A stretch of 64,000 nucleotides of DNA from Escherichia coli (GTDB lineage Bacteria > Pseudomonadota > Gammaproteobacteria > Enterobacterales > Enterobacteriaceae): assembly GCF_030384885.1 (NCBI RefSeq), contig NZ_CP128613.1; one strand, given 5' to 3'. This document shows, in pieces, positions 1,980-24,359 of the stretch. Numbering within the stretch: position 1 is the stretch's first letter; every line of letters begins with the position of its first letter. The notes beneath the pieces are model-generated. The model was given only the letters and a program-made list of their open reading frames with translations. It was not told the DNA's origin and ran no database searches. Both the position numbers and the translations under genes were made by a program.

Positions 1980-1991
1980 CCATCAACGAAA

Positions 1992-2016
1992 AAGCCCACA
2001 TCTGTGGGCTTTCATA
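1992..2016 (+). terminator. Rho-independent terminator downstream of autotransporter gene
   Basis: Hairpin gcccaca-tct-gtgggc followed by a short T-rich tract. Confidence 0.45.
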
Positions 2017-2139
2017 TCACCAGGAGCCGCGGCTCCTTTGCGTATCCTTTTATGTCTCCTCACCGTCTGGTCGGTGTCTTGCTGAGACTTCTAACTTCCT
2101 GTTTTTGTTGGTGTTGTCCTTACACCGTCCAATCATGAT

Positions 2140-2183
2140 TGGTGGGCTGGCGGGAGTTGAACCCGCGTCCGAAATTCCTACAT
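2140..2183. repeat. Direct repeat of the ssrA 3' end (att site of the ssrA-integrated island)
   Basis: tggtgggctggcgggagttgaacccgcgtccgaaattcctacat matches the terminal 44 nt of ssrA at 16498-16541 with one mismatch. Confidence 0.85.
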
Positions 2184-2310
2184 ACTAATAATATATCTTT
2201 AAAATCAAAATATTCTATTATTTATCAATGTATTATGTTTATGTGGTGTTAAGGGGTTTATATGGGTTTTAGTTCTCTGCCGCCAAAATGCCGCCAAAAA
2301 AATTGAATGG

Positions 2311-2336
2311 TAAAACGCCAGTTCGTTGAACTGGCG
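2311..2336 (-). terminator. Rho-independent terminator of the dcd-like/thyX-like operon
   Basis: Perfect 9-bp stem cgccagttc/gaactggcg with 3-nt loop, followed on the minus strand by a T run; lies just 3' of the thyX-like stop. Confidence 0.6.
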
Positions 2337-2346
2337 AGATCTTGTC

Positions 2347-3114
2347 TTATTGTTTTATTATCTTAACGTGCGCCGTTCCTCCATTGACTTTTTCGAAATC
2401 TTGGAACAAGGCAGGGGCATCTTGAGTTACAATATCGTAAAGTTTTTCTGAAACTGTTCTCATTTCATAGTCACCCTGTATTGCTCCTCTCATTTCGAAG
2501 AAGTGTCGAATTGCGCGAGCATTTGCTGTGACGATTATTTTTGTCTCGGTTGCATTAGGCAATATAGAGCGAGAAGCGCTTCTTAAGGCCCGCATTTTTT
2601 CTTTTTTGTTCTCATACGATTGGTTTTCACGGATTTTTTTCAAGGATTGCTTATAAAAATCCAGACTACTTTCAATATGTTGGCACCATGACTTAAACAA
2701 TTCTGGGTCATTTTTTACTTCTATAGGGGCTACGAATTCAGCATCGGATTCATCATGATACTGTTGGGATAACTGGCTATATGAAAAACCAGCTCTATGC
2801 CGAACTAGCTGGTGTGTAAATGCACGAGATACCCCAGTAATTAAAAAGGTCCAGTTCAAATGTTCTAAGACACTTTCATGCCCTTGAATAATTAAATTGT
2901 TGATATATTGACTTGTAGTCCGTGGAGACTGCTTATCCTCTCCAAAAGACATATAACATAGCCTGCCAGCGGCCTCTACCAGAAGCTCAGCTTCGGTCGC
3001 CTGCCCTTTGCGAACCCATTGCAATGATGATGTGTTTAAAAAATCATCAAAAACATTACTTTCAAATGAAGGGTGTGATATGCATTTTACTGATAAATCA
3101 GAGATTTTTATCAT
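2347..3114 (-). CDS. ThyX-like flavin-dependent thymidylate synthase homolog (divergent)
   Basis: 255 aa. Contains EHLNWTF...HQLVRHRAGFSYSQLSQQY, matching the ThyX signature (RHR followed by a conserved Ser) as recalled from Thermotoga ThyX, plus an N-terminal AAGRLCYMSF block. It has a one-residue insertion after RHR and Gln where the SxRY Arg is expected. Start codon lies 2 nt after the upstream gene's stop; SD gggag. Confidence 0.7.
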   Translation of the reverse strand: MIKISDLSVKCISHPSFESNVFDDFLNTSSLQWVRKGQATEAELLVEAAGRLCYMSFGEDKQSPRTTSQYINNLIIQGHESVLEHLNWTFLITGVSRAFTHQLVRHRAGFSYSQLSQQYHDESDAEFVAPIEVKNDPELFKSWCQHIESSLDFYKQSLKKIRENQSYENKKEKMRALRSASRSILPNATETKIIVTANARAIRHFFEMRGAIQGDYEMRTVSEKLYDIVTQDAPALFQDFEKVNGGTAHVKIIKQ

Positions 3115-3116
3115 TT

Positions 3117-3902
3117 TTACTCCCGTATAGCTTTTGGGGTGCTTACTTTAGCATCAACCTTTGGTTCGTTTGATTTAGCATTTTTTAGTAATTCAACGGT
3201 GCTTTTTAGGCTATTTATTTCATTTTGTTGAACTTTTATTGTTAATTCAAGATCTTTTGTACTACTGACATTACTGGATACTATTTGAAATAAGAAAGGA
3301 ATTGCTAGGGTTATCAACGTTAGCATTAAGGCTGCTATCGCAATTATAAAGCCAGTTTTTTTCGCAATGATTTTATTGATTTCTTTCGGAAGTCGTTTAT
3401 CAAGTCCTGCAAAATCCTTTCCCATTCTAGAAAGTTGATCATCATCCAATTTATTTACGATTTTTCCTTGGTAACCTTTAGTCGGTATTATTGTTTTAAA
3501 TAATAACATTCGGGCTACTGCTGAATTTTGTGTCAATGAGAATGGTTCTTTTGACATATTTACAAGATATATTGAAATTATGCCATTATATCCAGGGTCA
3601 ATATGCCCTGGATTCGTCATGATAATTCCATTTTTTGATAGTGTGTTTCTTGGAAATATTACACCAGCTAAATTTTTTGCAAGTTGGAATTTTTCATTTA
3701 ACTCTAATATTACAGTTTCCCCTGGCATCAGGATATGGTTGTTACGTGTTTTTTTATTGTCTTGACAGTCTGGTATATGTATTGTTTTTACAGAGAGATC
3801 AATGCTTGCAGATTGAACTTTAAATGTTCCATTTAATACCGTTAATGGATCAAAAATGTTGCCTCGCTGAATTTCATCATTGATTTCTATTTCAGACAGC
3901 AT
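3117..3902 (-). CDS. dCTP deaminase/dUTPase-fold protein with C-terminal transmembrane helix and coiled-coil tail
   Basis: 261 aa. N-terminal ~140 aa carry Dcd-family motifs (SIDLSV; LMPGETVILE; GHIDPGYNGIISIYLVN; LTQNSAVARMLLF), comparable to the E. coli Dcd IDPGW-G region. The C-terminal ~110 aa contain a 22-residue hydrophobic segment (GFIIAIAALMLTLITLAIPFLF) followed by a heptad-like polar stretch. Confidence 0.7.
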   Translation of the reverse strand: MLSEIEINDEIQRGNIFDPLTVLNGTFKVQSASIDLSVKTIHIPDCQDNKKTRNNHILMPGETVILELNEKFQLAKNLAGVIFPRNTLSKNGIIMTNPGHIDPGYNGIISIYLVNMSKEPFSLTQNSAVARMLLFKTIIPTKGYQGKIVNKLDDDQLSRMGKDFAGLDKRLPKEINKIIAKKTGFIIAIAALMLTLITLAIPFLFQIVSSNVSSTKDLELTIKVQQNEINSLKSTVELLKNAKSNEPKVDAKVSTPKAIRE

Positions 3903-3928
3903 ATCAAAATCCTATATTTGTAAAGTTA

Positions 3929-4942
3929 TTATAAATTAGCCAGAGGGTTTTTTATTACTGCATCTTCAAGATGCTCTGGGGAAAAATGTGCATAAATCAT
4001 AGTCATTTTTATATCAGAGTGGCCTAAAATATCTCGTAAAACCAAAATATTACCACCATTCATCATAAAATGGCTGGCGAATGTATGGCGCAGAACGTGA
4101 GTGCATTGGCCCTCTGGTAACTCAATGTCAGCTCGCTTTACTGCTCGTTCAAAGGCTTTTCTGCAAGGAGTGAATAACTTCCCTCTGTTCTTAGGGAGTT
4201 CGTCATACAGATCCTGAGATATCGGCACGGTACGGTTTTTCTTGCCCTTAGTCTTGGTATAGGTGATCCGGTATTTCGATAACTGATGGCCCTGCAGATT
4301 TTCGGCTTCACTCCAGCGCGCGCCGGTGGCCAGGCATATTTTTGTAATTAAAAGTAGACTGGGGCTTTGAGAATCAGCACAGGCATCCAGCAGACGTTTA
4401 ATTTCTTCCGGGGTCAGGAACGACAGTTCACCCTCAGCAATTTTAAATGTTGGCAGCCCGGCAAGCGGATTGGGGGCTGACCAGTGGCCCAACTTTTTCA
4501 GTGTGCCAAAAACAGATGATAGGTTGCGCTGTTCAAGGTTTACAGTGCGGGGCTTAACGGGCGACATAAGCGTGCCCTCTTCATTTCGCACTTCACCTTT
4601 TAGCCGCGCTTCTCGGTATTTAGTAAAATCACCGGCTGTCAGCTCTGAGGCGATGGGATCGCCTAGACCATTACAGATAATTCTAAGTTTCGCCATGAGG
4701 CGCTTGGGGTCTGCGAGTGTTTGACCATACAGGGAATACCACTGCTCAATTAATTCTGATAGGTGTCGCCGATCTTCCTTTTCCCCCAGCCATGGCTTTT
4801 TGTTCACTTCTTCCATTGTGAAGCTTTCAAAAGCAATGGCTTCGCCTTTCGTAGCAAATTGCTTACGCACGCGCTTGCCATTGCGTCCATGGGGATAGCA
4901 CTCGCACAACCATTTACCGTTTGGCTGTTTTCTGACAGTCAT
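3929..4942 (-). CDS. int: Phage integrase, tyrosine recombinase (P2/186-type)
   Basis: 337 aa. Catalytic residues in conserved context: ATGARWSE (Arg), HVLRHTF (His-x-x-Arg), MIYAHF (Tyr). Directly downstream of the cI-like gene as in the coliphage 186 lysogeny operon. Confidence 0.85.
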   Translation of the reverse strand: MTVRKQPNGKWLCECYPHGRNGKRVRKQFATKGEAIAFESFTMEEVNKKPWLGEKEDRRHLSELIEQWYSLYGQTLADPKRLMAKLRIICNGLGDPIASELTAGDFTKYREARLKGEVRNEEGTLMSPVKPRTVNLEQRNLSSVFGTLKKLGHWSAPNPLAGLPTFKIAEGELSFLTPEEIKRLLDACADSQSPSLLLITKICLATGARWSEAENLQGHQLSKYRITYTKTKGKKNRTVPISQDLYDELPKNRGKLFTPCRKAFERAVKRADIELPEGQCTHVLRHTFASHFMMNGGNILVLRDILGHSDIKMTMIYAHFSPEHLEDAVIKNPLANL

Positions 4943-4944
4943 GT

Positions 4945-5577
4945 TTAGATACTCTTTATTACTTTGACTGCACGCCCAATAACTTCCACATCATCAGTAG
5001 AGCACTCGAAAGACGCTTCATCTTGATTTACTACAATCTTATTGCCGGGAATCCGCATGATTTTTGCAACAATAATCATTCCATCAATATTGATAAGCCA
5101 GAATCCATTGCTGACCTGTTTAATTGATTTATCGATGAGATAACAATTAGTAGGGGTTTCTAAGAACATCAATTCTTCATAATCTGCAGGTAATATGCTG
5201 TGGTCTAGGAAAATCTCTTCATCAATACTGAGTTGTCCATTCTCCAGGGTTCCTTTAGGAATAGCTGGAGTTATGAGTTTGGATAACGGTTTAATTGCTT
5301 GTTTGTTCTCATTATGAGAACTTTTCTCAGGCTCAGCTCCTCCTTTCATGCTTCCCTGTCCTGTAGCTAACCAAAGCAACGAAACACCGGTTTCTAGTGC
5401 GCACTGAATTATCCAGTCAGCAGGAAAGCTGTCACGTAACACTCTGTTTGCCATAGTGCTTTTTGAGACATTCAGGTGCTCGCTTAATGCCTGCTTAGTT
5501 GTGAATCCATAAGCCTCAAGCAGCCTTTCAATAGCTGCCTTACCTCCCGTATCGGAACCCATTCTGATGTTTAACAT
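4945..5577 (-). CDS. cI: Phage CI-type repressor (186 cI-like)
   Basis: N-terminal HTH region (LEAYGF...CALETGVSLLWLATGQG) resembles the coliphage 186 CI N-terminal domain; divergent from the apl-like gene. Confidence 0.65.
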   Translation of the reverse strand: MLNIRMGSDTGGKAAIERLLEAYGFTTKQALSEHLNVSKSTMANRVLRDSFPADWIIQCALETGVSLLWLATGQGSMKGGAEPEKSSHNENKQAIKPLSKLITPAIPKGTLENGQLSIDEEIFLDHSILPADYEELMFLETPTNCYLIDKSIKQVSNGFWLINIDGMIIVAKIMRIPGNKIVVNQDEASFECSTDDVEVIGRAVKVIKSI

Positions 5578-5698
5578 TGGTGATCTCCATTTGACAATCT
5601 TGAATCAAGATCGTAATGTCTTCATGTCTCTTGATGTGAGAGTTTAAGAGACGGGCTAAAACGAACTAACACGCACACAAAGTAAGAGATACTGCACT

Positions 5699-5941
5699 AT
5701 GAGTACTGATATTTCAATTCGTGTACCAAAAGAGATGGCTACGCCTGCAGAGTTCGCAGAGTGGGAGGGTATTTCCCGCGGCTCTGTTTACCAAAAAATT
5801 CACCATGGTCAACTTGCTAAGTACATGGTCAAGAAAGAAAAAAACAAAGGCCGCGTAAGCCTGCGTTATCTGATGTACAAAACCGATCAGGTCCGTGAAT
5901 CCCTCGGTCATTCCAACTTCCGCGTCATTGTTGGTAAGTAA
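5699..5941 (+). CDS. Apl/Cox-like small DNA-binding protein (excisionase/early repressor)
   Basis: 80-aa basic protein, first gene of the rightward early operon divergent from cI, by synteny with 186 apl / P2 cox. Confidence 0.5.
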   Translation: MSTDISIRVPKEMATPAEFAEWEGISRGSVYQKIHHGQLAKYMVKKEKNKGRVSLRYLMYKTDQVRESLGHSNFRVIVGK

Positions 5942-5973
5942 GTTCAATTATGGGAACTTTCTAAGGGGGCACC

Positions 5974-6483
5974 ATGTTTGATTACAAGATTTCCAAACAT
6001 CCGCATTTCGATGAAGCCTGTAGGGCTTTTGCACTGCGCCACAACCTGGTGCAACTGGCAGAACGTGCAGGCATGAATGTGCAGATTCTGCGGAACAAGC
6101 TGAACCCAGCTCAACCTCATTTATTAACTGCACCAGAAATCTGGTTGCTTACCGATCTGACTGAAGATTCAACGCTGGTAGATGGTTTTCTGGCTCAGAT
6201 TCACTGCCTGCCATGTGTACCGATTAATGAGGTGGCAAAAGAGAAACTGCCACATTACGTCATGAGTGCAACCGCAGAGATCGGGCGTGTCGCGGCAGGT
6301 GCGGTTTCTGGCGATGTAAAAACCAGTGCAGGCCGTCGTGATGCGATCAGCAGCATTAACTCTGTTACACGACTGATGGCGCTGGCTGCTGTTTCATTGC
6401 AGGCCCGTTTACAGGCTAATCCTGCGATGGCGAGTGCGGTTGATACCGTGACTGGCCTCGGTGCTTCATTCGGTTTGCTGTGA
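5974..6483 (+). CDS. cII: CII-like lysogeny establishment regulator (186-type)
   Basis: 169 aa, positioned after the apl-like gene; size and position match 186 CII as recalled. Confidence 0.5.
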
Positions 6484-6490
6484 GGTGCTT

Positions 6491-6787
6491 ATGCTGATGA
6501 AAGAACCATCATTTGCATCGCTCCTGGTAAAACAAAGTCCGGCAATGCACTACGGTCACGGCTGGATCATGGGTGAGGATGGTAAACGCTGGCATCCGTA
6601 CCGTTCACAAGATGAATTGCTGTCTGAATTGACCACGAGGAAACGGAGAAAGTCCAAATGTATGCGGCAGAAAATAAAGTGGTTTATCACTTTCGTTACA
6701 GAGGGGAGAATTATTCAGTACCTGAAGATGATTTGCTCTGTTGCTATCCGTCGTTGTCGGGCGATGGTAGCTACTTTTTCACGCTAA
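6491..6787 (+). CDS. Hypothetical prophage early protein
   Basis: ORF with SD gaggtg 4 nt upstream of ATG at 6491; overlaps the next ORF out of frame, so one of the two may be spurious. Confidence 0.3.
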   Translation: MLMKEPSFASLLVKQSPAMHYGHGWIMGEDGKRWHPYRSQDELLSELTTRKRRKSKCMRQKIKWFITFVTEGRIIQYLKMICSVAIRRCRAMVATFSR

Positions 6788-6882
6788 AGGATGGAACCTT
6801 TATACGTGGTGAAAAAGTACAAGAAGTGATGCGTATAAAGACATCACCTCTTGAACGTTATCGGCGAAATATTTATCGGTAA
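6658..6882 (+). CDS. Hypothetical prophage early protein
   Basis: 74-aa ORF with SD ggag upstream. Confidence 0.35.
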   Translation: MYAAENKVVYHFRYRGENYSVPEDDLLCCYPSLSGDGSYFFTLKDGTFIRGEKVQEVMRIKTSPLERYRRNIYR

Positions 6883-7121
6883 CGATCTATCAGTGTCTGT
6901 ATCAGATGAGTGAATTCTTGTTGTTTAACCGAACCTAAAGGAAGTTTGTTTAATTCTTCGCGGAGGAGCTCAAAAAATGCTGATTGATTTGCTGAGTCAG
7001 TTCGAAATAAGGAGTGGATCAGACCTGAAACAAGAATTCGTTGAACAGCAACCTCATCGCGAAGACTGGAGATCTCGTTTTCAAGTTGCTCTATACGCTC
7101 TCTTTCAACCGGGTTCAACAT
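6873..7121 (-). CDS. Hypothetical small coiled-coil protein, antisense to the early operon
   Basis: 82-aa ORF with heptad-like ERIEQLENEISSLRDEVAVQR; its orientation is opposite to the surrounding early genes. Confidence 0.3.
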   Translation of the reverse strand: MLNPVERERIEQLENEISSLRDEVAVQRILVSGLIHSLFRTDSANQSAFFELLREELNKLPLGSVKQQEFTHLIQTLIDRYR

Positions 7122-7202
7122 TGATGATTCCTTCTAGCTATCAATATGTTGGTAATGGATCATATCAAAAATTTTTTAGTAGATGTGTTGTGGGATGCAT
7201 AA

Positions 7203-7544
7203 ATGGCTATTGAAGGCACTGCGGCGACTGTTCCATTAAGCCCCGGTGAACGCCTGAATGGACTTAATCACATTGCGGAGTTAAGGGCGAAAGTTTTTGG
7301 CCTGAATATTGAGTCAGAGCTTGAGCGGTTTATTAAAGATATGCGTGATTCACGGGATATTAATAGCGAACAAAATAAACGGGCACTGGCTGCCATATTC
7401 TTTATGGCAAAAATTCCAGCTGAACGTCATAGCATCAGCATTAATGAGCTGACCACTGACGAAAAGCGGGAGTTGATTAAAGCAATGAATCATTTTCGTG
7501 CAGTGGTGAGCTTATTTCCCAGACGGCTAACCATGCCGAATTAA
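7203..7544 (+). CDS. Hypothetical prophage early protein
   Basis: 113-aa ORF in the early operon. Confidence 0.4.
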   Translation: MAIEGTAATVPLSPGERLNGLNHIAELRAKVFGLNIESELERFIKDMRDSRDINSEQNKRALAAIFFMAKIPAERHSISINELTTDEKRELIKAMNHFRAVVSLFPRRLTMPN

Positions 7545-7611
7545 CCAACTAATGAAATTAATGGCGTAAACCCGCCGGGCATCCCTTTATCTAAATTCAG
7601 GAGAATTGATT

Positions 7612-7845
7612 ATGCGTAATATTGAAACCCTCTCGACCAAAACCGGACCGGATGACGCAGGGCTTAATATTTTACTGACAGAGGCTCGTCTGGAAGAACG
7701 CCGGGCAAGGGCTGAAGCAATGGCAGCTCGCCTTGATAGCCTGGCGTGTCATATCACATCCCGCCAGCTAACCCACGTCGAAGCGGCAGAACTGCTTCGT
7801 GTGACTGCTGAAGCAATCCAGAACGAAGCGCAGGAGATCCACTGA
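7612..7845 (+). CDS. Hypothetical prophage early protein
   Basis: ATG at 7612 preceded by SD aggaga; 77 aa. Confidence 0.4.
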   Translation: MRNIETLSTKTGPDDAGLNILLTEARLEERRARAEAMAARLDSLACHITSRQLTHVEAAELLRVTAEAIQNEAQEIH

Positions 7846-8072
7846 TGGCTGATGCAATGGATCTCGTACAGCAGCGCGTTGAAGAAGAACGCCAACGCCA
7901 TATCCGTGCTGCCCGTGCCAAAACGCCGGGCGTGTCCCGCGTGCTTTGCATTGAGTGTGAAGCGCCAATTCCGCCAGCACGCCGCCGTGCCATTCCGGGT
8001 GTGCAGCTTTGCATTACCTGTCAGGAAATCGCAGAGCTGAAAGGCAAACATTACAACGGAGGTGCTGTATGA
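7845..8072 (+). CDS. TraR/DksA-family C4 zinc-finger protein (phage)
   Basis: CIECEAPIPPARRRAIPGVQLCITC: two CxxC pairs with the spacing typical of TraR/DksA zinc fingers, common in P2/186-like early regions. Confidence 0.65.
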   Translation: MADAMDLVQQRVEEERQRHIRAARAKTPGVSRVLCIECEAPIPPARRRAIPGVQLCITCQEIAELKGKHYNGGAV

Positions 8073-8926
8073 GCACCATCCTGAAATGGGCGGGAAATAA
8101 AACTGCCATAATGTCCGAACTGAAAAAACATCTTCCTGCTGGCCCGCGACTGGTTGAACCTTTCGCGGGTTCCTGTGCTGTGATGATGGAGACGGATTAT
8201 CCCAGCTATCTGGTTGCGGATATTAATCCTGATTTAATCAACCTCTATAAAAAGGTTGCCGCTGATTGTGAATCGTTTATATCTCGCGCCAGAGTTTTAT
8301 TTGAGATCGCAAACAGGGAGGTGGCTTATTACAACATAAGGCAGGAGTTTAATTACTCAACTGAAATTACTGATTTCATGAAAGCGGTATATTTCCTGTA
8401 TCTCAATCGTCACGGTTACCGTGGTTTATGTCGCTATAACAAGAGCGGGCATTTCAACATTCCCTACGGTAATTATAAAAATCCGTATTTCCCTGAAAAA
8501 GAAATTCGCGCATTTGCAGAAAAGGCCCAGCGAGCAACGTTTATCTGCGCCAGCTTTGATGAAACGCTGGCGATGTTGAAGGCGGGGGATGTGGTGTATT
8601 GCGATCCGCCGTATGACGGTACGTTTTCCGGCTATCACACTGACGGCTTCACTGAAGATGACCAGTATCACCTGGCATCTGTTCTTGAACATCGGTCATC
8701 AGAAGGACATCCGGTCATTGTTTCTAACAGTGACACATCCCTGATCCGTTCGCTGTATCGCAATTTTACTCACCACTACATCAAGGCAAAACGCAGCATC
8801 GGTGTGGCAGCTGGCGAGGGTAAATCAGCAACAGAAATCATTGCTGTTTCCGGGCCGCGCTGCTGGGTGGGATTTGATTATTCGCGTGGCGTGGATAGTT
8901 CTGCCGTGTACGGAGTACGTGCATGA
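8069..8926 (+). CDS. dam: DNA adenine methyltransferase (Dam-like, phage-encoded)
   Basis: N-terminal [11 protein letters not shown]...EPFAGS (AdoMet-binding motif) and the catalytic DPPY motif (VYCDPPYDG); start overlaps the stop of the upstream ORF. Confidence 0.8.
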
Positions 8927-11337
8927 GTCATGCCGATATGAACAACTGCTGCGGCTTTAACGAAGCTGCCGCATCGTTCTCATGGAACAGCCCGAAAAAG
9001 GCCATTAACCCTTATCTGGACCCGGCGGAAGTTGCGCCGGTTTCTGCGCTTTCAAACCTGATCACTCTGTACGCTACTGATAACGAGCAGGAACAACTGC
9101 GCCGCGAGGCACTGAGTGATCAGGTCTGGGAGCGTTATTTCTTTAATGAATCCCGTGATCCTGTCCAACGCGAAATGGAGCAGGATAAGCTCATTAGCCG
9201 GGCAAAGATGGCGCATGAGCAGCAGCGTTTTAATCCAGACATGGTCATTCTGACTGACGTCAACGCCCAGCCTTCCCATATCAGCAAGCCGCTGATGCAA
9301 CGTATTGAATATTTCAGCAGCCTGGGCAGGCCAAAGGCTTATTCCCGCTATTTGCGTGAGACGATTAAGCCATGTCTGGAACGACTGGAGCATGTACGCG
9401 ACAGCCAGCTATCTGCATCTTTTCGTTTTATGGCAAGCCATGAAGGGCTGGACGGTCTGCTGATCCTGCCTGAAATGAGTCAGGATCAGGTGAAACGCCT
9501 GTCTACCCTTGTCGCTGCGCATATGAGCATGTGTCTTGATGCCGCTTGTGGTGATTTGTACGCCTCCGATGATGTTAAGCCAGAAGAAATCCGCAAGACA
9601 TGGGAAAAGGTGGCTGCAGAAACCCTGCGACTGGATGTCATACCGCCTGCGTTTGAGCAACTCCGCCGGAAAAGAAACCGCCGCAAACCTGTGCCTTATG
9701 AACTCATTCCGGGTTCGCTGGCGCGTATGCTGTGCGCCGACTGGTGGTATCGGAAATTATGGAAGATACGTTGCGAATGGCGGGAAGAGCAGTTGCGTGC
9801 TGTCTGCCTGGTCAGCAAAAAAGCATCTCCCTATGTCAGCTATGAAGCCGTGATGCATAAACGTGAGCAGCGCCGTAAGTCGCTGGAGTTTTTCCGTTCT
9901 CATGAACTGGTGAACGAAGACGGCGACACGCTGAACATGGAGGATGTGGTAAACACCAGCAGCAGCAACCCGGCGCATCGCCGCAACGAGATGATGGCCT
10001 GTGTTAAAGGCCTAGAGCTTATCGCGGAAATGCGTGGTGACTGCGCCGTTTTCTACACCATCACCTGTCCGTCACGTTTCCATTCCACGCTAAATAACGG
10101 CAGGCCAAACCCGACCTGGACCAACGCGACAGTAAGACAAAGCAGCGATTATCTGGTCGGCATGTTTGCTGCATTTCGTAAGGCTATGCACAAAGCCGGG
10201 TTGCGCTGGTATGGCGTGCGGGTGGCTGAGCCGCATCATGACGGCACAGTTCACTGGCACCTGTTGTGTTTCATGCGCAAAAAAGACCGCCGCGCCATTA
10301 CTGCATTGTTGCGTAAGTTTGCCATCCGTGAAGACCGCGAGGAGCTGGGCAATAACACGGGGCCACGCTTTAAGTCTGAGCTGATAAACCCGCGCAAAGG
10401 AACGCCGACAAGCTACATTGCGAAATATATCAGTAAGAATATTGACGGGCGTGGTCTGGCTGGCGAGATCAGTAAGGAAACGGGTAAATCCCTGCGTGAT
10501 AACGCTGAATACGTTAATGCCTGGGCGTCTCTGCATCGTGTTCAGCAATTCCGCTTCTTTGGCATTCCGGGGCGTCAGGCTTACCGTGAACTGCGATTGC
10601 TGGCTGGTCAGGCGGCAAGGCAACAGGGTGACAAAAAAGCAGGTGCGCCGGTACTGGATAACCCGCGCCTTGATGCCATCCTGGCTGCTGCTGATGCTGG
10701 TTGTTTTGCCTCCTACATCATGAAGCAGGGCGGCGTACTGGTTCCCCGCAAATATCACCTCATCAGAACCGCTTATGAAATCAACGAAGAGCCGACCGCC
10801 TATGGCGATCACGGTATTCGTATTTATGGCATCTGGTCACCCATTGCAGAGGGCAAGATCTGCACTCATGCAGTGAAGTGGAAAATGGTTCGTAAGGCCG
10901 TTGACGTTCAGGAGGCGGCAGCCGACCAGGGCGCTTGCGCCCCTTGGACTCGTGGCAATAACTGTCCCCTTGCTGAAAATTTGAACCAACAGGAGAAAGA
11001 TAAATCAGCTGATGGGGACACCAGAACGGACATTACCCGCATGGATGACAAGGAGTTGCACGATTACCTGCACAGTATGAGCAAAAAAGAGCGCCGGGAA
11101 CTGGCTGCAAGGTTACGCCAGGTGAAACCGAAACGGCGTAAAGACTACAAACAGCGAATTACAGACCATCAGCGACAGCAGCTCGTCTATGAACTGAAGT
11201 CCAGGGGATTTGATGGCAGTGAGAAAGAAGTCGATTTGCTCCTTCGCGGTGGCAGTATTCCGTCAGGAGCAGGCCTGCGTATTTTCTATCGGAACCAGCG
11301 TCTGAAGGAAGATGATAAGTGGCGGAACCTGTATTAA
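8923..11337 (+). CDS. Phage replication initiation protein (P2 gpA-like rolling-circle endonuclease)
   Basis: 804 aa. HUH-type motif VHWHLLCF and active-site Tyr block [12 protein letters not shown], as in P2/186 gene A. Confidence 0.8.
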
Positions 11338-11429
11338 TTACGCGGGTTAACAATTCGTGCCCTTAATAATACCAGGCATATCAGGCTGATGAATGTAAAA
11401 AAACGTTTTACATCAGTAAGATTATTATA

Positions 11430-11449
11430 TACTGTAAATATAAACAGTG
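11430..11449 (+). promoter_or_regulatory. LexA (SOS) box upstream of small ORF plus dinI-like gene
   Basis: tactgtaaatataaacagtg: CTGT-N8-ACAG with an AT-rich spacer, ~40 nt upstream of the ATG at 11490. Confidence 0.65.
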
Positions 11450-11489
11450 GTTATCTATACAGTATTGCTTTGGTGTCATAGGAGGAAAG

Positions 11490-11678
11490 ATGCAGGACTA
11501 TTTTTTGGAGTCTTTGAAGCTCCAGCGCATTGATTTTTTTCTTAAGCTTGTAGCGGCTAGTGAGTGTAGTGATGAAGAGAAGGGGCTGGCTCTGCAGTGG
11601 GTTTCTGAACTGACAGATGAACTCATGGCAAAAATCAGAACCCACGAATACAACCGCTCAATGGATGTCATCAGCTGA
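11490..11678 (+). CDS. Hypothetical SOS-regulated small protein (possible Tum-like antirepressor position)
   Basis: 62-aa ORF with SD aggagg, immediately downstream of the LexA box; position analogous to 186 tum, but no recognised sequence similarity. Confidence 0.4.
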   Translation: MQDYFLESLKLQRIDFFLKLVAASECSDEEKGLALQWVSELTDELMAKIRTHEYNRSMDVIS

Positions 11679-11688
11679 GGTGACTTTT

Positions 11689-11922
11689 ATGCGCATTGAA
11701 ATAATGATCGATAAAGAGCAGAAGATTAGCCAGTCTACCCTGGACGCCCTTGAATCCGAGCTTTACCGCAATCTGCGCCCCCTGTATCCCAAAACGGTAA
11801 TCCGTATCCGTAAAGGTAGCTCTAACGGTGTGGAACTGACCGGACTGCAACTGGACGAAGAAAGAAAACAAGTGATGAAAATTATGCAGAAGGTGTGGGA
11901 AGACGACAGCTGGCTGCATTGA
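11689..11922 (+). CDS. DinI-family protein
   Basis: 77 aa, MRIEIMIDK...LDALESEL...KVWEDDSWL parallels E. coli DinI (MRIEVTIAK...IDALAGEL...ETWESADDWF). Confidence 0.7.
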   Translation: MRIEIMIDKEQKISQSTLDALESELYRNLRPLYPKTVIRIRKGSSNGVELTGLQLDEERKQVMKIMQKVWEDDSWLH

Positions 11923-12035
11923 TTTTGTCAATAGACGCTTGTTTTTACTAATCAAAAAGGGTTACATATGAGTGAGAGGCGATGTCAATCAGATATCGCC
12001 TTGTTTTTTGTCAAGAAAAGAATAATAGGCTAAAA

Positions 12036-12713
12036 ATGAAAATTAATAATGTAGCGTTACCAATATCTCTTGCTGTAATCCTAACTGGTTGCGTGCCACA
12101 TGCTTCTAACCGAAATATCACTGCTATTGAAGTGGTGAAGCCTGCTATTGGGCAAAGTGCTACCGCCTACATGGGCGATCCCATTATCACATCTGCTACT
12201 GGATTTAAAACGGACGTACTAGAACTTGGTGCGGCTAATGGTGCATTGTCTTCTATCGCTGCTGGTACATATTGCAGTGAGGGGAATGGAATTTACCGCA
12301 ATTATCATAACCCTCAAGCTGTTGCGTTAAAAAATCTCTATGGGCAAATCGGTAACTATGTTGATTATGTTAGTTACGATGCTGCAAAAAATGAGATATC
12401 ACCGCCAAATGGTACTTCTTATACTGCATCAGAAATTTCTATCAAACGTGTTCCTGATGGGCTGTGTCGAGTTAGTAACTCATTGGTTAAGACTATCGAA
12501 TACAATGGAAATGCAGGCGGTGTAATGAAGTTCACCTATCGTGAATTTGCAAACGATATGGCTCGTGCAGCATTTACAACAGATTTTTCTGTAGATTCTA
12601 AGGGAAGTGACGTTATCGCTTACAAAGGTGCCAAGTTCAAAGTGAACAAGGCTGATAACTCGTCTATTTCTTATACAATTATTTCTGGCTTTGACAAGGC
12701 TGTCACGTTCTAG
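12036..12713 (+). CDS. Prophage-encoded lipoprotein (moron)
   Basis: Signal peptide MKINNVALPISLAVILTGC with lipobox LTGC; the remainder is Ser/Thr/Asn-rich with no recognised domain. Confidence 0.6.
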   Translation: MKINNVALPISLAVILTGCVPHASNRNITAIEVVKPAIGQSATAYMGDPIITSATGFKTDVLELGAANGALSSIAAGTYCSEGNGIYRNYHNPQAVALKNLYGQIGNYVDYVSYDAAKNEISPPNGTSYTASEISIKRVPDGLCRVSNSLVKTIEYNGNAGGVMKFTYREFANDMARAAFTTDFSVDSKGSDVIAYKGAKFKVNKADNSSISYTIISGFDKAVTF

Positions 12714-12805
12714 GTTTCACGCTTACTGAGTATGTTACGATTTTGCACATTCTGCATAAACGCGCATGTCTATGCTGCATGAGATCGCATGATCGTTTGA
12801 GGATC

Positions 12806-12833
12806 TTTTGTGTTAAGGCCCGCCAGTTCTGGC
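12806..12833 (+). terminator. Rho-independent terminator after lipoprotein gene
   Basis: GC-rich stem gcccgcc/ggcgggc followed by tttt. Confidence 0.6.
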
Positions 12834-13038
12834 GGGCTTTTGCGTAGATCATGCAGGTGCATGAAAACCACTACATAAAGCGGGCAGGCGTGGCGGGGAT
12901 ACGAGCGCGCGTTATGACAAATAGATGATTAGCCTGATTTATTCACAGCTGTATAAATGATCACCTTGTAATTAGGTAAGTAATGTCTTCTATTATCATT
13001 GATTTGATAGGATTAATCTGTTTTTTGAGGATTAGAGG

Positions 13039-15375
13039 ATGATTGAAGAGGTAGTTATTGACAAAGTAGGCTCATATAATGGCCCTACTCAGCTTTTACA
13101 TGGGCTTTCTAAATTTAACTATTTATATGGAGCTAATGGTGCAGGTAAAACAACTATAAGTAAAATTATTAATGACCCTGAACAATATCCAACATGTCCG
13201 ATTAAATGGAAAAATAATATATCTTTAATAAGCTACGTATATAATAAAGATTTTGTTGAAAGAAATTTTAGTCAAGATAAAATTAAAGGTGTATTTACCC
13301 TTGGTAGCGATCTTAAGGAGGATGAAGAGAAATTAATATCTCTTGAAGAAGAAAAAAATAAGCTAATAGAATCTATTATAGCAAAGGAAAAGCTAATAGA
13401 TGGTGGTGATAATATATTAGGCGTTGTTAAACAAATCGAAGACCATGAAAAATCTTTTAAAGATTCATGTTGGAAGCAAAAAGTAAAACATGATAATGTG
13501 TTCTCAAAGGCTTTTGAGGGATTAAGGAATAGTAGTGAAAAATTTAAAGCTAGAGTGTTGGCTGAGTATGAAAATAACACATCAGAAGTTTGCTCAATAG
13601 CAGAGCTAATTGAGAAAGCAAAAATTGTTTTTTCTACTGAATTGACATCACATGTATCAATTACAATTCCATCCTTCAATGGGATAGATGATATTTTGAG
13701 TAGGGAGATTTGGAGTGAGCGTATTCTAGGGAAAAAAGACGTTAGTGTTTCAGACTTAATTACAATGCTCAATAACAGTGATTGGGTTAAGGAAGGTTTA
13801 ACATATTTCAGTAAATCTAATCCCAAGTGCCCATTCTGCCAGCAGGATGTAAATGATAATATATTTGATAATCTATCATCATATTTTGATAAAACATATG
13901 AGTTAAAAAAAAGAGAAATCGATGCATTGGTTTTACAATATGAACATCAACTTAATAATATCTTGCAGGCGATAGATGATATAAGGGCGATTAAATCTCC
14001 ATTCATAAATTATGAAGTGTTTGAGGATAAGGCTAAGATAGTATTATCTGAATTAAACAAGAATTTTGAATTGGCAAAAAATAAACGCAATTTTTTAAGT
14101 GAATCAGTTCATTTTAGTGACTTAAGTGAAGTTGTTGATGATTTTATTTCTTTTTTGAATGATTCAAATCTATTGATAGATAATAATAACAAAATACACA
14201 GTAATAGAAAGGTAGAGGCTAGTAATCTTTCTAATCAGATATGGGCATATATCGTAAAGGTGGAGTTAAAGTCTGAAATAACTTCTTACCGTAGCGAATC
14301 TGATAAATTTAATAGGAAGTTACAAGGGCTTAAATCTGGGTTAGAGGAAGACAAAAAGAAGTTAATGTTAAATGCTTCGGCTATTGAGGCAATTGAGTCT
14401 AATAAAACCAGTACTCTTCCAACTATTACAAAAATTAACAAGATTCTGGATTCTTATGGCTTCAAAAATTTTTACTTAAAACCCTCCGAAGATAAAAAGC
14501 ATTATATGATAGTGAGAGATAGTGGAGATAATGCTCGTACAACCCTTAGCGAGGGAGAAAAGACATTTATCACTTTTTTGTATTTTTATAGCCTTGTTAG
14601 AGGGAGTGATAATGCATCAGGTGTTTTAGATGATCGTGTTGTAGTATTTGATGATCCAATTTCAAGTTTAGATAGTGATATTCTGTTTATTGTAAGTTCG
14701 TTGATTAAAGATTTAATGGAGGATGTTCGTAAGGATGAAGGAAATATTAAGCAAATTATATTCCTTACACATAATATTTATTTTCATAAAGAGTTGACTT
14801 TTAATACTAAAAGATCCGGTAATCAAGCAATGAAAGAGGAGACTTTTTGGATTGTAAGGAAAAAAGGGAAGGTCTCATATCTTGAAAAGTGCGAATCAAA
14901 CCCAATAAAAACGTCTTATGATTTGCTCTGGTGCGAATTGAGAAGAACAGATATTAATAATAATACTATACAAAATACAATGCGAAGGATTTTGGAGAAT
15001 TACTTTAAGATATTAGGTGGGATGGATATTAGGAAGCTTGAATGTCATTTTTATGGTGATGAAAAAATCATATTTAAATCTTTAGTGTCATGGATTAATG
15101 ATGGTTCTCATTTTGCAGGTGATGATCTTTATATGAATTTAGATACGGAGTCTGTGCAAAAATATTTAATTGTTTTTCAGAAGATATTTGAGTGTAGTGA
15201 GCATACTGCCCATTACAAAATGATGATGGGTGAGTTTTATAGACCGTTAAATGAGTCACTTCATCTACAAGATGAGTTTGATATTGATGATAGTGCGAAT
15301 GATGAGTATGCTTCGTCAAAAATTGAGATAGAAGATGGAATAAACACATCTCTACATAGTAATACATATTTGTAA
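13039..15375 (+). CDS. RloC/PrrC-like ATPase with CxxC zinc hook (putative anticodon nuclease / abortive-infection protein)
   Basis: 778 aa, very AT-rich. N-terminal Walker A GANGAGKTT; long coiled-coil region containing CPFC; D-loop/Walker B-like VVVFDDPISSLDSD; C-terminal region with RRILENYF and downstream His residues, reminiscent of the PrrC/RloC Arg-Glu-His nuclease motif as recalled. Confidence 0.55.
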   Translation: MIEEVVIDKVGSYNGPTQLLHGLSKFNYLYGANGAGKTTISKIINDPEQYPTCPIKWKNNISLISYVYNKDFVERNFSQDKIKGVFTLGSDLKEDEEKLISLEEEKNKLIESIIAKEKLIDGGDNILGVVKQIEDHEKSFKDSCWKQKVKHDNVFSKAFEGLRNSSEKFKARVLAEYENNTSEVCSIAELIEKAKIVFSTELTSHVSITIPSFNGIDDILSREIWSERILGKKDVSVSDLITMLNNSDWVKEGLTYFSKSNPKCPFCQQDVNDNIFDNLSSYFDKTYELKKREIDALVLQYEHQLNNILQAIDDIRAIKSPFINYEVFEDKAKIVLSELNKNFELAKNKRNFLSESVHFSDLSEVVDDFISFLNDSNLLIDNNNKIHSNRKVEASNLSNQIWAYIVKVELKSEITSYRSESDKFNRKLQGLKSGLEEDKKKLMLNASAIEAIESNKTSTLPTITKINKILDSYGFKNFYLKPSEDKKHYMIVRDSGDNARTTLSEGEKTFITFLYFYSLVRGSDNASGVLDDRVVVFDDPISSLDSDILFIVSSLIKDLMEDVRKDEGNIKQIIFLTHNIYFHKELTFNTKRSGNQAMKEETFWIVRKKGKVSYLEKCESNPIKTSYDLLWCELRRTDINNNTIQNTMRRILENYFKILGGMDIRKLECHFYGDEKIIFKSLVSWINDGSHFAGDDLYMNLDTESVQKYLIVFQKIFECSEHTAHYKMMMGEFYRPLNESLHLQDEFDIDDSANDEYASSKIEIEDGINTSLHSNTYL

Positions 15376-15382
15376 TTTTATT

Positions 15383-15413
15383 GCAATTGCCAGTAGCAAC
15401 AATACGGTACTGG
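15383..15413. terminator. Bidirectional hairpin between convergent ATPase and portal-fragment genes
   Basis: 9-bp perfect inverted repeat ttgccagta...tactggcaa. Confidence 0.4.
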
Positions 15414-15424
15414 CAACTAATATT

Positions 15425-15964
15425 TTAGTTAAGCTCATATGGAGAAAATTCTATAAGTTTCTCCCCGAGCCATGCGTTTATTTCCATAAATCGTTTTTGC
15501 AAAGGAATTAATTCATTTATCACAAAAACCTTACTAGCCTTCTCCACATCCCCAAACCCCCCAACATTATTAGGCATTATCCCCATCATTTGCGGCGGCA
15601 CACGGTGTGCCGCCATCATGTCGTCCCGGCTCACGTTCTTGATATTCAGAAACTCATCCTTCGCCGCGACTTCTGACAACGGGATAATCTGAAGCCCGTC
15701 CTTTTTGCCGTTAGGAGAGTACATAAACAGGTTGCGGAAGTTGCCTGGCCCTTTGGCACTTTTCATTGCGTTGCGGAGGTTGTTCACATCTTCTTGGTTC
15801 TGTGCGGCATCGGTCATGTACATGATGAAACCTGCATGGCTGCCGTTGATGTAATACTTACGGCGGAACAGTGTGGCGGACTCGTTGAGCAGGGCTGACG
15901 GGATGGCAGAGAGATAACCTGGCAGGCCGTAGATCTCCTGGTTGATGTCCGGTTCCGCCCTTAA
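15425..15964 (-). pseudogene. Phage portal-like (P2 gpQ-like) gene fragment, 5'-truncated
   Basis: The reading frame stays open upstream of the first Met to ~15964 and then hits a stop with no start. Orientation and position (leftward, after the replication/cargo region) match P2 Q; the family assignment is from synteny and is tentative. Confidence 0.4.
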
Positions 15965-16153
15965 TCATCTCAACCATGCGTTACAGCTCGATCCCCGCTG
16001 TGGCGTGAAAAAAGACAAACAGCAGCTGGAGCGCAGACTGCGCAATGACAGCCGCTGACAGAACGTGCCCCCGCGCACGGGCGGCACGGGGTGGCGAAAG
16101 GCACAGCCACATCAAAACCCCGTCCACCGCCCTTTATTTCAGGAGAAAGCAGC

Positions 16154-16354
16154 ATGAAGTTTGTTGCGCCAGAACAGGCACCGGAACAGGCGGAAATCAT
16201 CAGAAACACGCCGTTCTGGCCTGATGTGGACCTGTCGGAGTTTCGCAGTGTCATGCGCACTGACGGCACGGTGACGCAGCCGCGTTTAAAGCAGGTTGCG
16301 CTGTCGGCAATTTCGGAGGTCAACGCACCGATACGACCATTTGCATTGATGTAA
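16154..16354 (+). pseudogene. Phage head-completion-like (P2 gpL-like) N-terminal fragment
   Basis: 66-aa ORF with SD aggaga; IIRNTPFWPDVD...PRLKQ...ISEVNA resembles my recollection of the P2 gpL N-terminus; truncated relative to ~170 aa. Confidence 0.3.
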
Positions 16355-16497: not shown

Positions 16498-16860
16498 TGG
16501 TGGAGCTGGCGGGAGTTGAACCCGCGTCCGAAATTCCTACATCCTCGGTACTACATGCTTAGTCAGTCTTTACATTCGCTTGCCAGCTGCGGACGGACAC
16601 GCCACTAACAAACTAGCCTGATTAAGTTTTAACGCTTCAACCCCAGGCAGGGCTTCCACGCGATCTCTTTTGGGTTTGACCTCTCTTGATCCCCGTCCTA
16701 AGAGCGGAGGCTAGGGAGAGAGGGCTCTAAGCAGGTTATTAAGCTGCTAAAGCGTAGTTTTCGTCGTTTGCGACTATTTTTTGCGGCTTTTTACGAGGCC
16801 AACCGCCCCTCGGCATGCACCTTGGGTTTCGCAAATCCCGTCGAATCCAGAATCAGCCCC
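16498..16860 (-). ncRNA. ssrA: tmRNA (SsrA)
   Basis: The reverse complement reads ggggctgattctggattcgacggg...gttcaactcccgccagctccacca, the E. coli tmRNA sequence, 363 nt. Confidence 0.95.
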
Positions 16861-20743: not shown

Positions 20744-22336
<1,593 letters not shown>

Positions 22337-22345
22337 ATGTCTGAT

Positions 22346-22372
22346 GGCCGACGTGAAGTCGGCCATTTTTTT
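22346..22372 (+). terminator. grpE terminator
   Basis: ggccgac-gtgaa-gtcggcc hairpin followed by attttttt. Confidence 0.7.
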
Positions 22373-23012
22373 AGCTTAAAAAATCCTGTACTTCCAGCCA
22401 CGGCGTGTTGAAATCATCTATTTTTTTATAGTCGTTCATTGGCAGAACGACCACGTTATAGGTGTCAGAACCTTCATTCAGATCAAAAATCTGAAAGCCT
22501 CTCTTATTGAGTTCGGTCTGGATGCGTTCAAAGATCTCGTCAAGGTAGCGGTCTCCGGCTTCACAGACATCGGAGATTTCATCCTCTTGGGTTATTTCGA
22601 CAAGAAGATTCCTTAATTCCTCAGAAGCTGTCAGGTTTTTTGTGAGTTCATAAAAGCGATCTGCAGCAAAATTAGCCAGCTCACCTTCTTCATCTTCACC
22701 TTTCCAGTCAACGAGTTGAATTAATCCTTCACTGCGTAGAACCTGTAAAAATGCCTGCGCCAGGTCATGATTTCCGAGATCGCCTCCACTGCAATCGAGA
22801 ACGTCTTGCAATCCATATTCGTCTTCATCTTCGTCTTCAAAGATTTCAGGTTGCGTCGAAAGTTGAGAGAAAATAGTGGGCCATAAGGTTGGGGTGTGCT
22901 GTAAAAAAACGCTGGCGACGACGTTGAGGTCGTCGGAAAAATCCTTATCCCATTCAATTACATAATCTTCTGACATAACATCAATATCCTTTCCGAATGC
23001 TTGAAAAGACAT
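22371..23012 (-). CDS. Hypothetical acidic protein (possible accessory insertion between grpE and corE)
   Basis: 213-aa ORF, strongly acidic ([15 protein letters not shown]), AT-rich relative to its neighbours; I do not recognise it as a K-12 gene at this position. Confidence 0.5.
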
Positions 23013-23063
23013 TATTACATTGCTAAGTAAATGACAGGAATTGATGGAATCCTAAAAGATGGC

Positions 23064-23090
23064 GATAAAAAAGGCGAACCGGAGTTCGCC
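23064..23090 (-). terminator. corE (yfjD) terminator
   Basis: ggcgaac-cgga-gttcgcc hairpin with a T run on the minus strand. Confidence 0.6.
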
Positions 23091-23096
23091 ATTGTG

Positions 23097-24359
23097 TTAC
23101 TCCGCCACACTCTCGCGCAGCGGTTTCACAGGAAAAACTTTTACCTGCTTAATCATATTGTCCTGTACATCGAGAATATCGATATCGTACTCGCCAATAC
23201 GCACGCGAGTTCCTGCGACAGGAATCTCTTCCAGTGCCTCAAGAATGACGCCATTAACCGTTCGTGCATCATCTTCCGGTAGATGCCAGTTAAAGGCTTT
23301 GTTGATTTCCCGCACGTTGGCAGTGCCATCGATAATCACCGAACCGTCGTTTTGCGGCGTGACCTCTTCGGCGAGCGTTGGCGACATCGACGTGGTGAAA
23401 TCACCAACAATCTCTTCGAGAATATCTTCGACCGTCACCAGACCCTGAATATCTCCATACTCGTTGACGACCAGGCCGACTTTCTTTTTGTTGCGCTGAA
23501 ACTTCACCAGCTGCGTGCTGAGCGGCGTACCTTCCGGGACAAAATAGATTTCGTCCGCGGCGCGTAGCATGGTTTCTTTGGTGAACTCTTTTTTCTCCGA
23601 CATCAACCGCCAGGCTTCACGCACACGCAGCATACTGATGGCGTCGTCCAGCGAGTCACGGTAGAGCACGATGCGTCCGTGAGGTGAGTGGGAGAGTTGG
23701 CGGAGAATCGATTTCCAGTCATCGTTGATATCAATACCGATAATTTCACTGCGCGGCACCATGATGTCATCGACAGTCATTTTTTCCAGATCGAGTACCG
23801 ACAACAGCATATCCTGATTGCGACGGGAAATTTGTGACCTCGATTCGTGCACAATGGTGCGTAATTCTTCTTTGCTTAAAGAGCCACTGACCACAATATC
23901 GGTTTTGATGCCCATCATGCGCATTAACATGCGGGTAATAGCGTTCAGCAACCAGACCAGCGGCATCATCAAAATTTGCAGCGGCGCCAGCAGAAAACTA
24001 CTTGGATAGGCGACTTTTTCCGGGTACAGCGCGGCAATGGTTTTCGGCAATACTTCAGCAAAAACCAGTACGACAAAAGTAAGCACACCAGTCGCAATTG
24101 CCACGCCCGCATCCCCGTACAAACGCATCCCCACAATAGTGCCGAGCGCGGAGGCAAGAATATTGACCAGGTTATTGCCGATTAACACCAGGCTTATCAG
24201 GCGGTCTGGCTTACGCAGCAATTTTTCGACACGTTTGGCCGAGCGATTACCCTGTTTCGCCATATGCCGCAGACGATAGCGGTTGAGGGTCATCATTCCG
24301 GTTTCGGACCCGGAAAAATAGGCTGAAATGACCACCATGATGATCAGAATAATGATCAA
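23097..24359 (-). CDS. corE: HlyC/CorC-family transporter (YfjD/CorE), CNNM + CBS + CorC domains
   Basis: 420 aa, N-terminal membrane domain and CBS pair. Confidence 0.85.
   Translation of the reverse strand: MIIILIIMVVISAYFSGSETGMMTLNRYRLRHMAKQGNRSAKRVEKLLRKPDRLISLVLIGNNLVNILASALGTIVGMRLYGDAGVAIATGVLTFVVLVFAEVLPKTIAALYPEKVAYPSSFLLAPLQILMMPLVWLLNAITRMLMRMMGIKTDIVVSGSLSKEELRTIVHESRSQISRRNQDMLLSVLDLEKMTVDDIMVPRSEIIGIDINDDWKSILRQLSHSPHGRIVLYRDSLDDAISMLRVREAWRLMSEKKEFTKETMLRAADEIYFVPEGTPLSTQLVKFQRNKKKVGLVVNEYGDIQGLVTVEDILEEIVGDFTTSMSPTLAEEVTPQNDGSVIIDGTANVREINKAFNWHLPEDDARTVNGVILEALEEIPVAGTRVRIGEYDIDILDVQDNMIKQVKVFPVKPLRESVAE

Follow-up and report, generated by a model that had tools for sequence, protein, structure and literature searches.

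What kind of gene lies between grpE and yfjD in a minority of Escherichia coli strains, and what could it be doing there? We addressed this question in a stretch of 64,000 nucleotides of the E. coli contig NZ_CP128613.1 (assembly GCF_030384885.1), referred to here as the window. Its minus strand holds an uninterrupted open reading frame (ORF) at 22371..23012, with 213 codons when counted from the first ATG in the ORF listing and the raw sequence. An earlier reading of this DNA from its letters alone (the sequence-only reading) had described an intact acidic ORF that is convergent with grpE (21746..22336, plus strand) and terminates within the T-tract of the grpE terminator. All of this is present as described, and the stop sits in the T-tract because the complement of its TAA is 22371-22373. 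The neighbor on the other side, which had been named corE, is annotated as yfjD and encodes a HlyC/CorC family transporter. We are nearly certain of the descriptive answer as a whole: 22371-22976 on the minus strand is an intact, selectively maintained gene, and its product is a cytoplasmic, extremely acidic protein of 201 amino acids (aa) that belongs to the DUF6630 family.

The protein is a member of a family that is already catalogued and named, and it is not new in that sense. E. coli 2013C-4282 (NZ_CP027579.1) matches the window at 99.99% identity, and its coding sequence (CDS) at this place is WP_001287921.1, carries the name 'DUF6630 family protein' and is identical to the window protein. 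The Pfam model PF20335 (DUF6630) gave 43.9 bits with the 213-aa form and 45.5 bits with the 201-aa form, both above the gathering cutoff of 27, and it was above threshold in 18/18 aligned relatives. The DW-GE...F / G-D-Y signature of the family is also present. The Pfam match, the identical RefSeq CDS and the ratio of non-synonymous to synonymous substitution rates (dN/dS) between alleles, which is 0.06-0.17, mark the ORF as more than a chance frame.

Translation most likely begins at the second ATG (22976), which would yield the 201-aa product. This is the start called by the Prokaryotic Genome Annotation Pipeline (PGAP) in RefSeq. It is favored because the N-terminus of every homologue reads M-[SY]-[ED]-D-Y-V-I-E-W-D, because a Shine-Dalgarno-like GGAAAGGA located 10 nt 5' of this ATG is kept in the Escherichia, Salmonella and Superficieibacter alleles, and because a stop codon breaks the 12-codon upstream extension in E. 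whittamii. The length of 213 aa given in the sequence-only reading therefore stands for the open frame, but probably not for the protein. The 201-aa form contains 49 Asp+Glu against 12 Lys+Arg, has a pI of 4.05 and a net charge of about -37 at pH 7, and its acidic runs include FEDEDEDEY. The GC content of the gene is 43.1%, and 42.6% at third codon positions (GC3), compared with 50-54% for recN, nadK, grpE, yfjD, ypjD and ffh, in agreement with the AT-richness that had been noticed by eye.

The gene was found in 303 of 5426 complete E. coli genomes (5.6%), with exact agreement between megablast and blastn. All 303 copies are single-copy, chromosomal and full length, with the frame intact, and none is on a plasmid (0/303). 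In the E. coli genomes without the gene, blastn at 11-mer sensitivity found no fragments elsewhere, returning the same 303 genomes only. In K-12 the stops of yfjD and grpE are 54 bp apart, and this spacer has no similarity to the 760 bp of the window. A 254-bp probe spanning the K-12 junction matches contiguously in 5122 genomes. Together with the 303 carriers this accounts for 5425 of the 5426 genomes, and therefore the locus has two states only. Presence segregates within lineages, because 2020CK-00188, the genome with flanks most similar to the window (99.0%), nevertheless has an empty site. The absence from K-12 suspected earlier was thus borne out by the pangenome comparison that had been proposed with it: a syntenic copy is found neither in K-12 nor in most E. 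coli, 94% of the complete genomes being without the gene.

At occupied sites the gene and its own upstream spacer make up a single-gene cassette, which is about 0.77 kb long and bracketed by the terminators of yfjD and grpE (Table 1). The cassette contains no other ORF, and the gene is monocistronic between the two terminators. In alignment, the K-12 counterpart of this segment consists of the last grpE codons and the 54-bp spacer.

The idea of a strain-specific insertion did not withstand comparison with other genera. The order yfjD-DUF6630-grpE is present in E. whittamii (90% aa identity of the DUF6630 protein to that of the window), Superficieibacter electus (67%), Salmonella enterica (62%; L005/L006) and Klebsiella spallanzanii (45%; L007). 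In Entomohabitans teleogrylli (40%) the contig ends inside the gene, so that only the yfjD side is seen, and a metagenomic contig (L010, 83-679) has a 33%-identical homologue that is convergent with the 3' end of grpE. In all, at least four further genera have the gene at this site, a fifth, Entomohabitans, shows it on the yfjD side, and more than 1000 Salmonella database entries contain the gene. The gene is not strain-specific, and its site between two core genes is fixed. The flanking proteins are 84-99% identical across these taxa, which means that the DUF6630 gene evolves several times faster than its neighbors.

Two allele classes occur in E. coli. Class A (292 genomes) is 96-100% identical to the window and class B (11 genomes) is 80-82% identical. 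Between the classes the synonymous divergence (dS) is 0.79-0.88, with flanks that are 95-98% identical. Only the central ~500 bp of the CDS diverge in this way; at the gene ends and in both spacers, identity is 85-100%. All inter-allele comparisons, over dS of up to about 3, fall within the low dN/dS range given above, and therefore the protein is kept by purifying selection. The only higher value, 0.40, was obtained between two near-identical class-B alleles (dS 0.075).

The cassette has also crossed genus borders. In Salmonella Senftenberg NCTC10384 and in strain S2122 it is 93-94% identical to the window, against 80-88% in the flanks. Identity in a 50-bp sliding window changes from Salmonella-like to Escherichia-like at about 23150, in the last ~50 nt of yfjD, and back again at 22337, at the grpE stop. 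A database cluster at 92% identity holds 1403 sequences, and the named members that were read are all Salmonella, from many serovars; a second Salmonella allele class has about 60% identity. In a neighbor-joining tree the Salmonella alleles form two separate clades, one of them nested in Escherichia class A. The contrast between flank and cassette identity, the breakpoints and the tree together lead to the conclusion that the cassette was exchanged between genera. As judged from these alignments, an Escherichia-type cassette moved into Salmonella by homologous recombination in the conserved gene ends. Deep alleles within species combined with exchange are the pattern expected under balancing or frequency-dependent selection, although repeated import alone could also yield it.

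Sequence searches indicate that DUF6630 is a small family that spans several phyla. HMMER over 1.84 billion representative proteins gave 37 matches at E<=1e-3, and 68 were obtained with a profile. The enterobacterial members form a divergent branch, with about 45 bits to the Pfam model and 20-30% identity to non-enterobacterial members. In one alignment (A2), residues D90, E94 and F103 do not vary and W91 and D171 hardly vary, and in another (A4) the five equivalents are all invariant. They fall in the motifs (V/I)DW-GE...F and G-D-Y, a signature that survives at 20-25% overall identity. Relatives are named no more specifically than 'cytoplasmic protein', 'hypothetical protein' or 'DUF6630 family protein', and no member with a known function or a solved structure was found. 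There was no significant match in NCBIfam, PADLOC or PHROGs; PADLOC-DB returned 0 families at E<=1, and the protein thus fits no defense model there. Single-protein and profile queries of the PDB sequences gave coiled-coil noise only. No helix-turn-helix (HTH), ribbon-helix-helix (RHH) or AbrB domain was detected with Pfam, and full-text literature searches returned no paper on 'DUF6630' or on the locus tag 'STM2680'.

AlphaFold2, run with an 18-sequence alignment, produced a model with a mean predicted local distance difference test score (pLDDT) of 91.8 and a predicted template modeling score (pTM) of 0.88. In this model the N-terminal half is helical and packs against a small mixed beta-sheet, whose strands lie near residues 6, 87-90, 161-167, 172-179 and 195-197. 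Foldseek found no significant match in PDB (best E 0.56) or among the viral models of BFVD (best E 0.16), and no immunity, antitoxin, DNA-mimic or enzyme fold was recognized in these two collections. Judged against them, the predicted fold is apparently new.

Relatives elsewhere on chromosomes are again single genes wedged between unrelated operons. The context scans were thin, with 6 loci from genome contigs and 10 from metagenomes, mostly E. coli-like. In another gammaproteobacterium (L019, 6001-6558) the order is recR-[DUF6630]-htpG. Other relatives lie between a LysR regulator and a DMSO (dimethyl sulfoxide)-reductase-like operon (L017), between a peptide/glutathione-type ATP-binding cassette (ABC) importer operon and moeA (L028), in Enterovibrio (L020), and on a marine-type contig (L021), where the gene adjoins those of a lipoprotein and an ankyrin protein and the DUF6630 protein has a signal peptide. 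Those on soil-metagenome contigs, probably from Bacteroidota (L040/L042), have N-terminal transmembrane helices. Two small genes beside the L028 homologue were considered as SUKH-type immunity fragments, a guess that was dropped as it found no Pfam support.

In Fusobacteria (Sebaldella-like; L024, 6001-7737, and L026, 6001-7764) there is a DUF6630 protein of 282 aa with a C-terminal extension. Its gene is followed by that of a ~284-aa paralogue scoring 24 bits, just under the Pfam threshold, and the pair belongs to a conserved block, all on one strand, that also includes pheA and genes for a pseudouridine synthase, shikimate dehydrogenase, shikimate kinase and dehydroquinase. One further relative is found in an integrase-bearing island (L031, 1-17174; ERZ1714338 contig_1248) with fragmented vgrG (Gp5_trimer_C) and DUF4123 adaptor genes of a type VI secretion system (T6SS). 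Downstream of these there is an internally duplicated same-strand array of small unannotated genes, of which the DUF6630 homologue is the last, beside an IS3 insertion sequence (IS). Many genes of this contig look frameshifted, by decay or by assembly error. No conserved partner gene was found in the about twelve contexts inspected, and in an all-against-all BLAST of the neighbors only the tandem DUF6630 paralogue of Fusobacteria recurs.

A link to mobile elements was considered and rejected. There were no matches in phages, and none in IMG/VR with two profiles. Two matches were obtained in PLSDB, both from Salmonella (L022, NZ_LN868944.1, and L023, NZ_CP110658.1; one of 728 kb, the other a 272-kb IncHI2A record), and both carry the housekeeping block trmD-rimM-rpsP-ffh-ypjD-yfjD-grpE-nadK-recN-bamE. 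This block is chromosomal DNA, and the two records are therefore mis-assigned replicons or plasmid-chromosome chimeras.

What function could account for such a gene? We rank an immunity-type mechanism first, but only tentatively and with low confidence. The DUF6630 protein would act alone, as a stoichiometric binding protein of the kind of an orphan immunity inhibitor or a decoy. It would contact its target through a strongly negative surface and through the conserved DW-GE...F / D-Y patch. This target may be a basic, probably nucleic-acid-directed protein that enters the cytoplasm, for example an interbacterial toxin, which would be neutralized. If such a function were subject to frequency-dependent selection, three properties of this one locus would be accounted for at once, namely the polymorphism for presence or absence, the deep alleles and the exchange across genera. 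Taken together, the descriptive account and a stand-alone orphan immunity-type inhibitor or decoy make a reading that is possible, although it falls short of being probable. A more complete proposition is rather doubtful: a stand-alone immunity or decoy protein of new fold, whose presence/absence and two ancient allele classes are held by balancing selection and shared between Escherichia and Salmonella via cassette exchange, with the toxin located elsewhere or in competitors.

Several features point to an immunity-type role. Like the orphan immunity proteins of T6SS, contact-dependent inhibition (CDI), Rhs and colicin systems, the protein is small, cytoplasmic and acidic, here to an extreme degree, and its stand-alone gene is patchy in presence, has deep alleles and is exchanged horizontally, also between genera. 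It has no conserved partner in about ten different contexts. Relatives occur in cytoplasmic, signal-peptide and membrane-anchored forms, tandem paralogues are found in other phyla (Fusobacteria), and one relative lies in the vgrG-DUF4123 island (L031). The predicted fold is confident but new, so that no enzyme fold is recognized, which was also counted in favor of this role.

Other observations weigh against an immunity protein. The vicinity of the DUF6630 gene contains no toxin, T6SS, CDI, Rhs or colicin gene, either in the window or in any of five other genera, and the toxin remnants whose search had been suggested in the sequence-only reading are absent from the cassette and its surroundings. 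Unlike orphan immunity genes, this one has no cognate or remnant toxin beside it, its neighbors being yfjD and grpE in six genera, and it occupies a core housekeeping site instead of a toxin/immunity array. The protein has no similarity to any known immunity family in sequence and fold searches. A T6SS flavor appears in one of about twelve contexts only, on a degenerate contig, and most E. coli do without the gene. At the whole-gene level a dN/dS of about 0.1 gives no sign of an arms race. Moreover, the (near-)invariance of D90, W91, E94, F103 and D171 from Enterobacteria to Fusobacteria and Bacteroidota-like contigs is a better fit to a fixed ligand or catalytic site than to a co-evolving toxin interface.

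The sequence-only reading had offered an immunity, antitoxin-like or DNA-mimic role. The first is favored by circumstantial evidence and stays a guess, while the other two fail on testable defining features. Like type II antitoxins, the DUF6630 protein is small and acidic; unlike them, it lacks a DNA-binding domain, and its gene neither adjoins a toxin gene nor belongs to a bicistronic operon. Of the toxin-like genes, ratA is the nearest, a core gene about 4 kb away that has its own partner.

Among the alternatives to an immunity-type protein, the one that survives best, unlikely as it is, makes use of the same conserved residues. The acidic and aromatic patch (D, W, E, F, D, Y) may be a binding site for Mg2+, polyamines or some other small cationic molecule, with a possible functional link to YfjD, a CNNM/CorC-type transporter reported to export polyamines. 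Polyamine-binding sites typically combine acidic and aromatic residues, and in DUF6630 the invariant D/E/D and the W/F/Y residues are kept across phyla, in a protein of extreme net charge. In addition, in six genera the gene follows immediately downstream of yfjD and shares its strand. However, an intrinsic terminator lies between the two genes, the relatives L017, L019, L020, L021, L024-28 and L040 have no adjoining CNNM or polyamine gene, and 94% of E. coli have yfjD without the DUF6630 gene.

The other neighbor, grpE, suggests an accessory factor in heat shock or proteostasis, e.g. a modulator or client mimic of DnaK-GrpE or HtpG, which we find distinctly improbable. Relatives do adjoin chaperone genes at two independent sites, namely grpE in Enterobacteriaceae (including the 33%-identical L010) and recR-htpG in L019, and by a rough post-hoc estimate this double adjacency is unlikely under random placement. 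Yet the statistic was computed after the data were seen, and L010 and L019 may be coincidence. Both sites are terminator-rich gaps between core operons, and chaperone genes are missing from five or more of the other contexts. The DUF6630 gene is convergent with grpE and not co-transcribed with it, and no sigma-32-like promoter was visible by eye upstream, as far as such an inspection goes.

No better placed is a small enzyme of new fold, in which the invariant Asp/Glu/Asp would be the catalytic residues. Five residues strictly conserved in very distant relatives, at 20-25% overall identity, together with purifying selection, are consistent with this proposal. On the other side, there is no recognizable catalytic fold or family, the presence of the gene is patchy and dispensable, and no metabolic neighborhood is conserved except the mixed block of Fusobacteria.

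The acidity of the protein also recalls DNA mimics such as Ocr of phage T7 and ArdA of plasmids, which are likewise small and of very high negative charge density. A DNA-mimic, anti-restriction or anti-defense protein, whose negative surface would imitate DNA, is nonetheless very improbable here. The net charge of about -37, the pI of 4.05 and the Asp/Glu runs agree with a negative surface, as a measure computed from the sequence that concerns overall charge and not its three-dimensional pattern, and the gene is AT-rich and horizontally exchanged. Mobile-element carriage and the structure of a known mimic are the other marks of such proteins, but there are no phage matches, 0/303 copies are on plasmids, and no fold match was obtained in PDB or BFVD.

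Finally, a functionless remnant that hitch-hikes between two essential, highly conserved genes would suit a gene that is absent from 94% of E. coli without known consequence and on which no literature was found, but it is the least credible proposal of all, given a frame intact in 303/303 genomes, a dN/dS of about 0.1 over dS of up to about 3, a confident predicted fold and a family that spans several phyla.

As it stands, this is a named, uncharacterized accessory gene that changes no general picture. A confident fold without a relative in PDB or among viral models, with five (near-)invariant residues across phyla, makes it a tractable target among domains of unknown function (DUF). The locus is also an unusually clean natural case of a single-gene present/absent cassette with deep alleles that crosses between Escherichia and Salmonella by recombination at core-gene ends. 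If the immunity or decoy interpretation were true, the gene would be a single-gene 'immunity islet' in the core genome. If interbacterial antagonism were the driver, the locus would show that housekeeping regions can harbor immunity genes as isolated islets, which are overlooked when searches are based on islands.

Table 1. Features of the yfjD-grpE locus, in coordinates of the window
Feature	Position	Strand	Description
DUF6630 family protein CDS	22371..22976	-	201 aa + stop; ORF, PGAP annotation, Pfam PF20335 45.5 bits, dN/dS about 0.1, AlphaFold2 pLDDT 91.8
In-frame upstream extension (213-aa form)	22977..23012	-	probably 5' untranslated region; contains Shine-Dalgarno-like GGAAAGGA at 22987-22994
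grpE intrinsic terminator	22343..22373	+	hairpin with 10-bp stem at 22343-22367, T's at 22366-22372; T-tract overlaps the DUF6630 stop (22371-22373)
yfjD intrinsic terminator	23063..23090	-	hairpin 23090-23073, then TTTTTT; separates yfjD from the DUF6630 gene
Segment polymorphic relative to K-12	22330..23095	.	766 bp; last two grpE codons, both terminators and the gene; K-12 counterpart ~63 bp
Central part of CDS where E. coli classes differ	22450..22950	-	62-97% identity per 40-bp window, most 62-87%
Tract exchanged between Escherichia and Salmonella	22337..23150	.	NCTC10384 91-100% identical to the window inside; outside, 92-100% to another Salmonella

The length of grpE tracks the cassette. 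In E. coli carriers of the DUF6630 gene it is 591 nt (ending in AKAK, 196 aa), and at the two empty sites inspected, K-12 and 2020CK-00188, it is 594 nt (ending in AKAKA, 197 aa). With grpE length coupled to the cassette, the polymorphic segment therefore begins within the last grpE codons. On the strand of the DUF6630 gene, its 3' end is followed by the grpE hairpin with no U-tract (22337-22370), and therefore transcripts may read antisense into grpE. A consensus sigma-70 scan found no promoter for the gene; an extended -10-like TGTAATAAT seen by eye upstream is a candidate promoter element. Rfam gave nothing significant over 22200-23300.

A mechanically listed ORF of 540 aa at 20744-22366 (minus strand) consists of nadK, with its true start at 21622, and an antisense frame through all of grpE. 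It was rejected as a gene, its upstream part being the open antisense frame across grpE.

One record labeled E. coli SCPM-O-B-8794 (NZ_JAATUR010000050.1; L013) has flanks with 90-95% DNA identity to the window, as does E. whittamii (L014), and its DUF6630 gene itself is 96% identical to that of the window. From these identities the record may belong to a cryptic Escherichia lineage.

Positions 1-16315 of the window are occupied by an integrase-bearing island inserted at the transfer-messenger RNA (tmRNA) gene ssrA (tmRNA at 16498-16860). The island carries a BRO-N protein, an inovirus Gp2-family protein and remnants of IS66 and IS256. It also contains an overlapping same-strand trio composed of an S-adenosylmethionine (SAM)-dependent DNA methyltransferase (2852-5641), a DEAD/DEAH helicase (5638-7683) and a GIY-YIG nuclease (7676-8854), which looks like a restriction or defense module.
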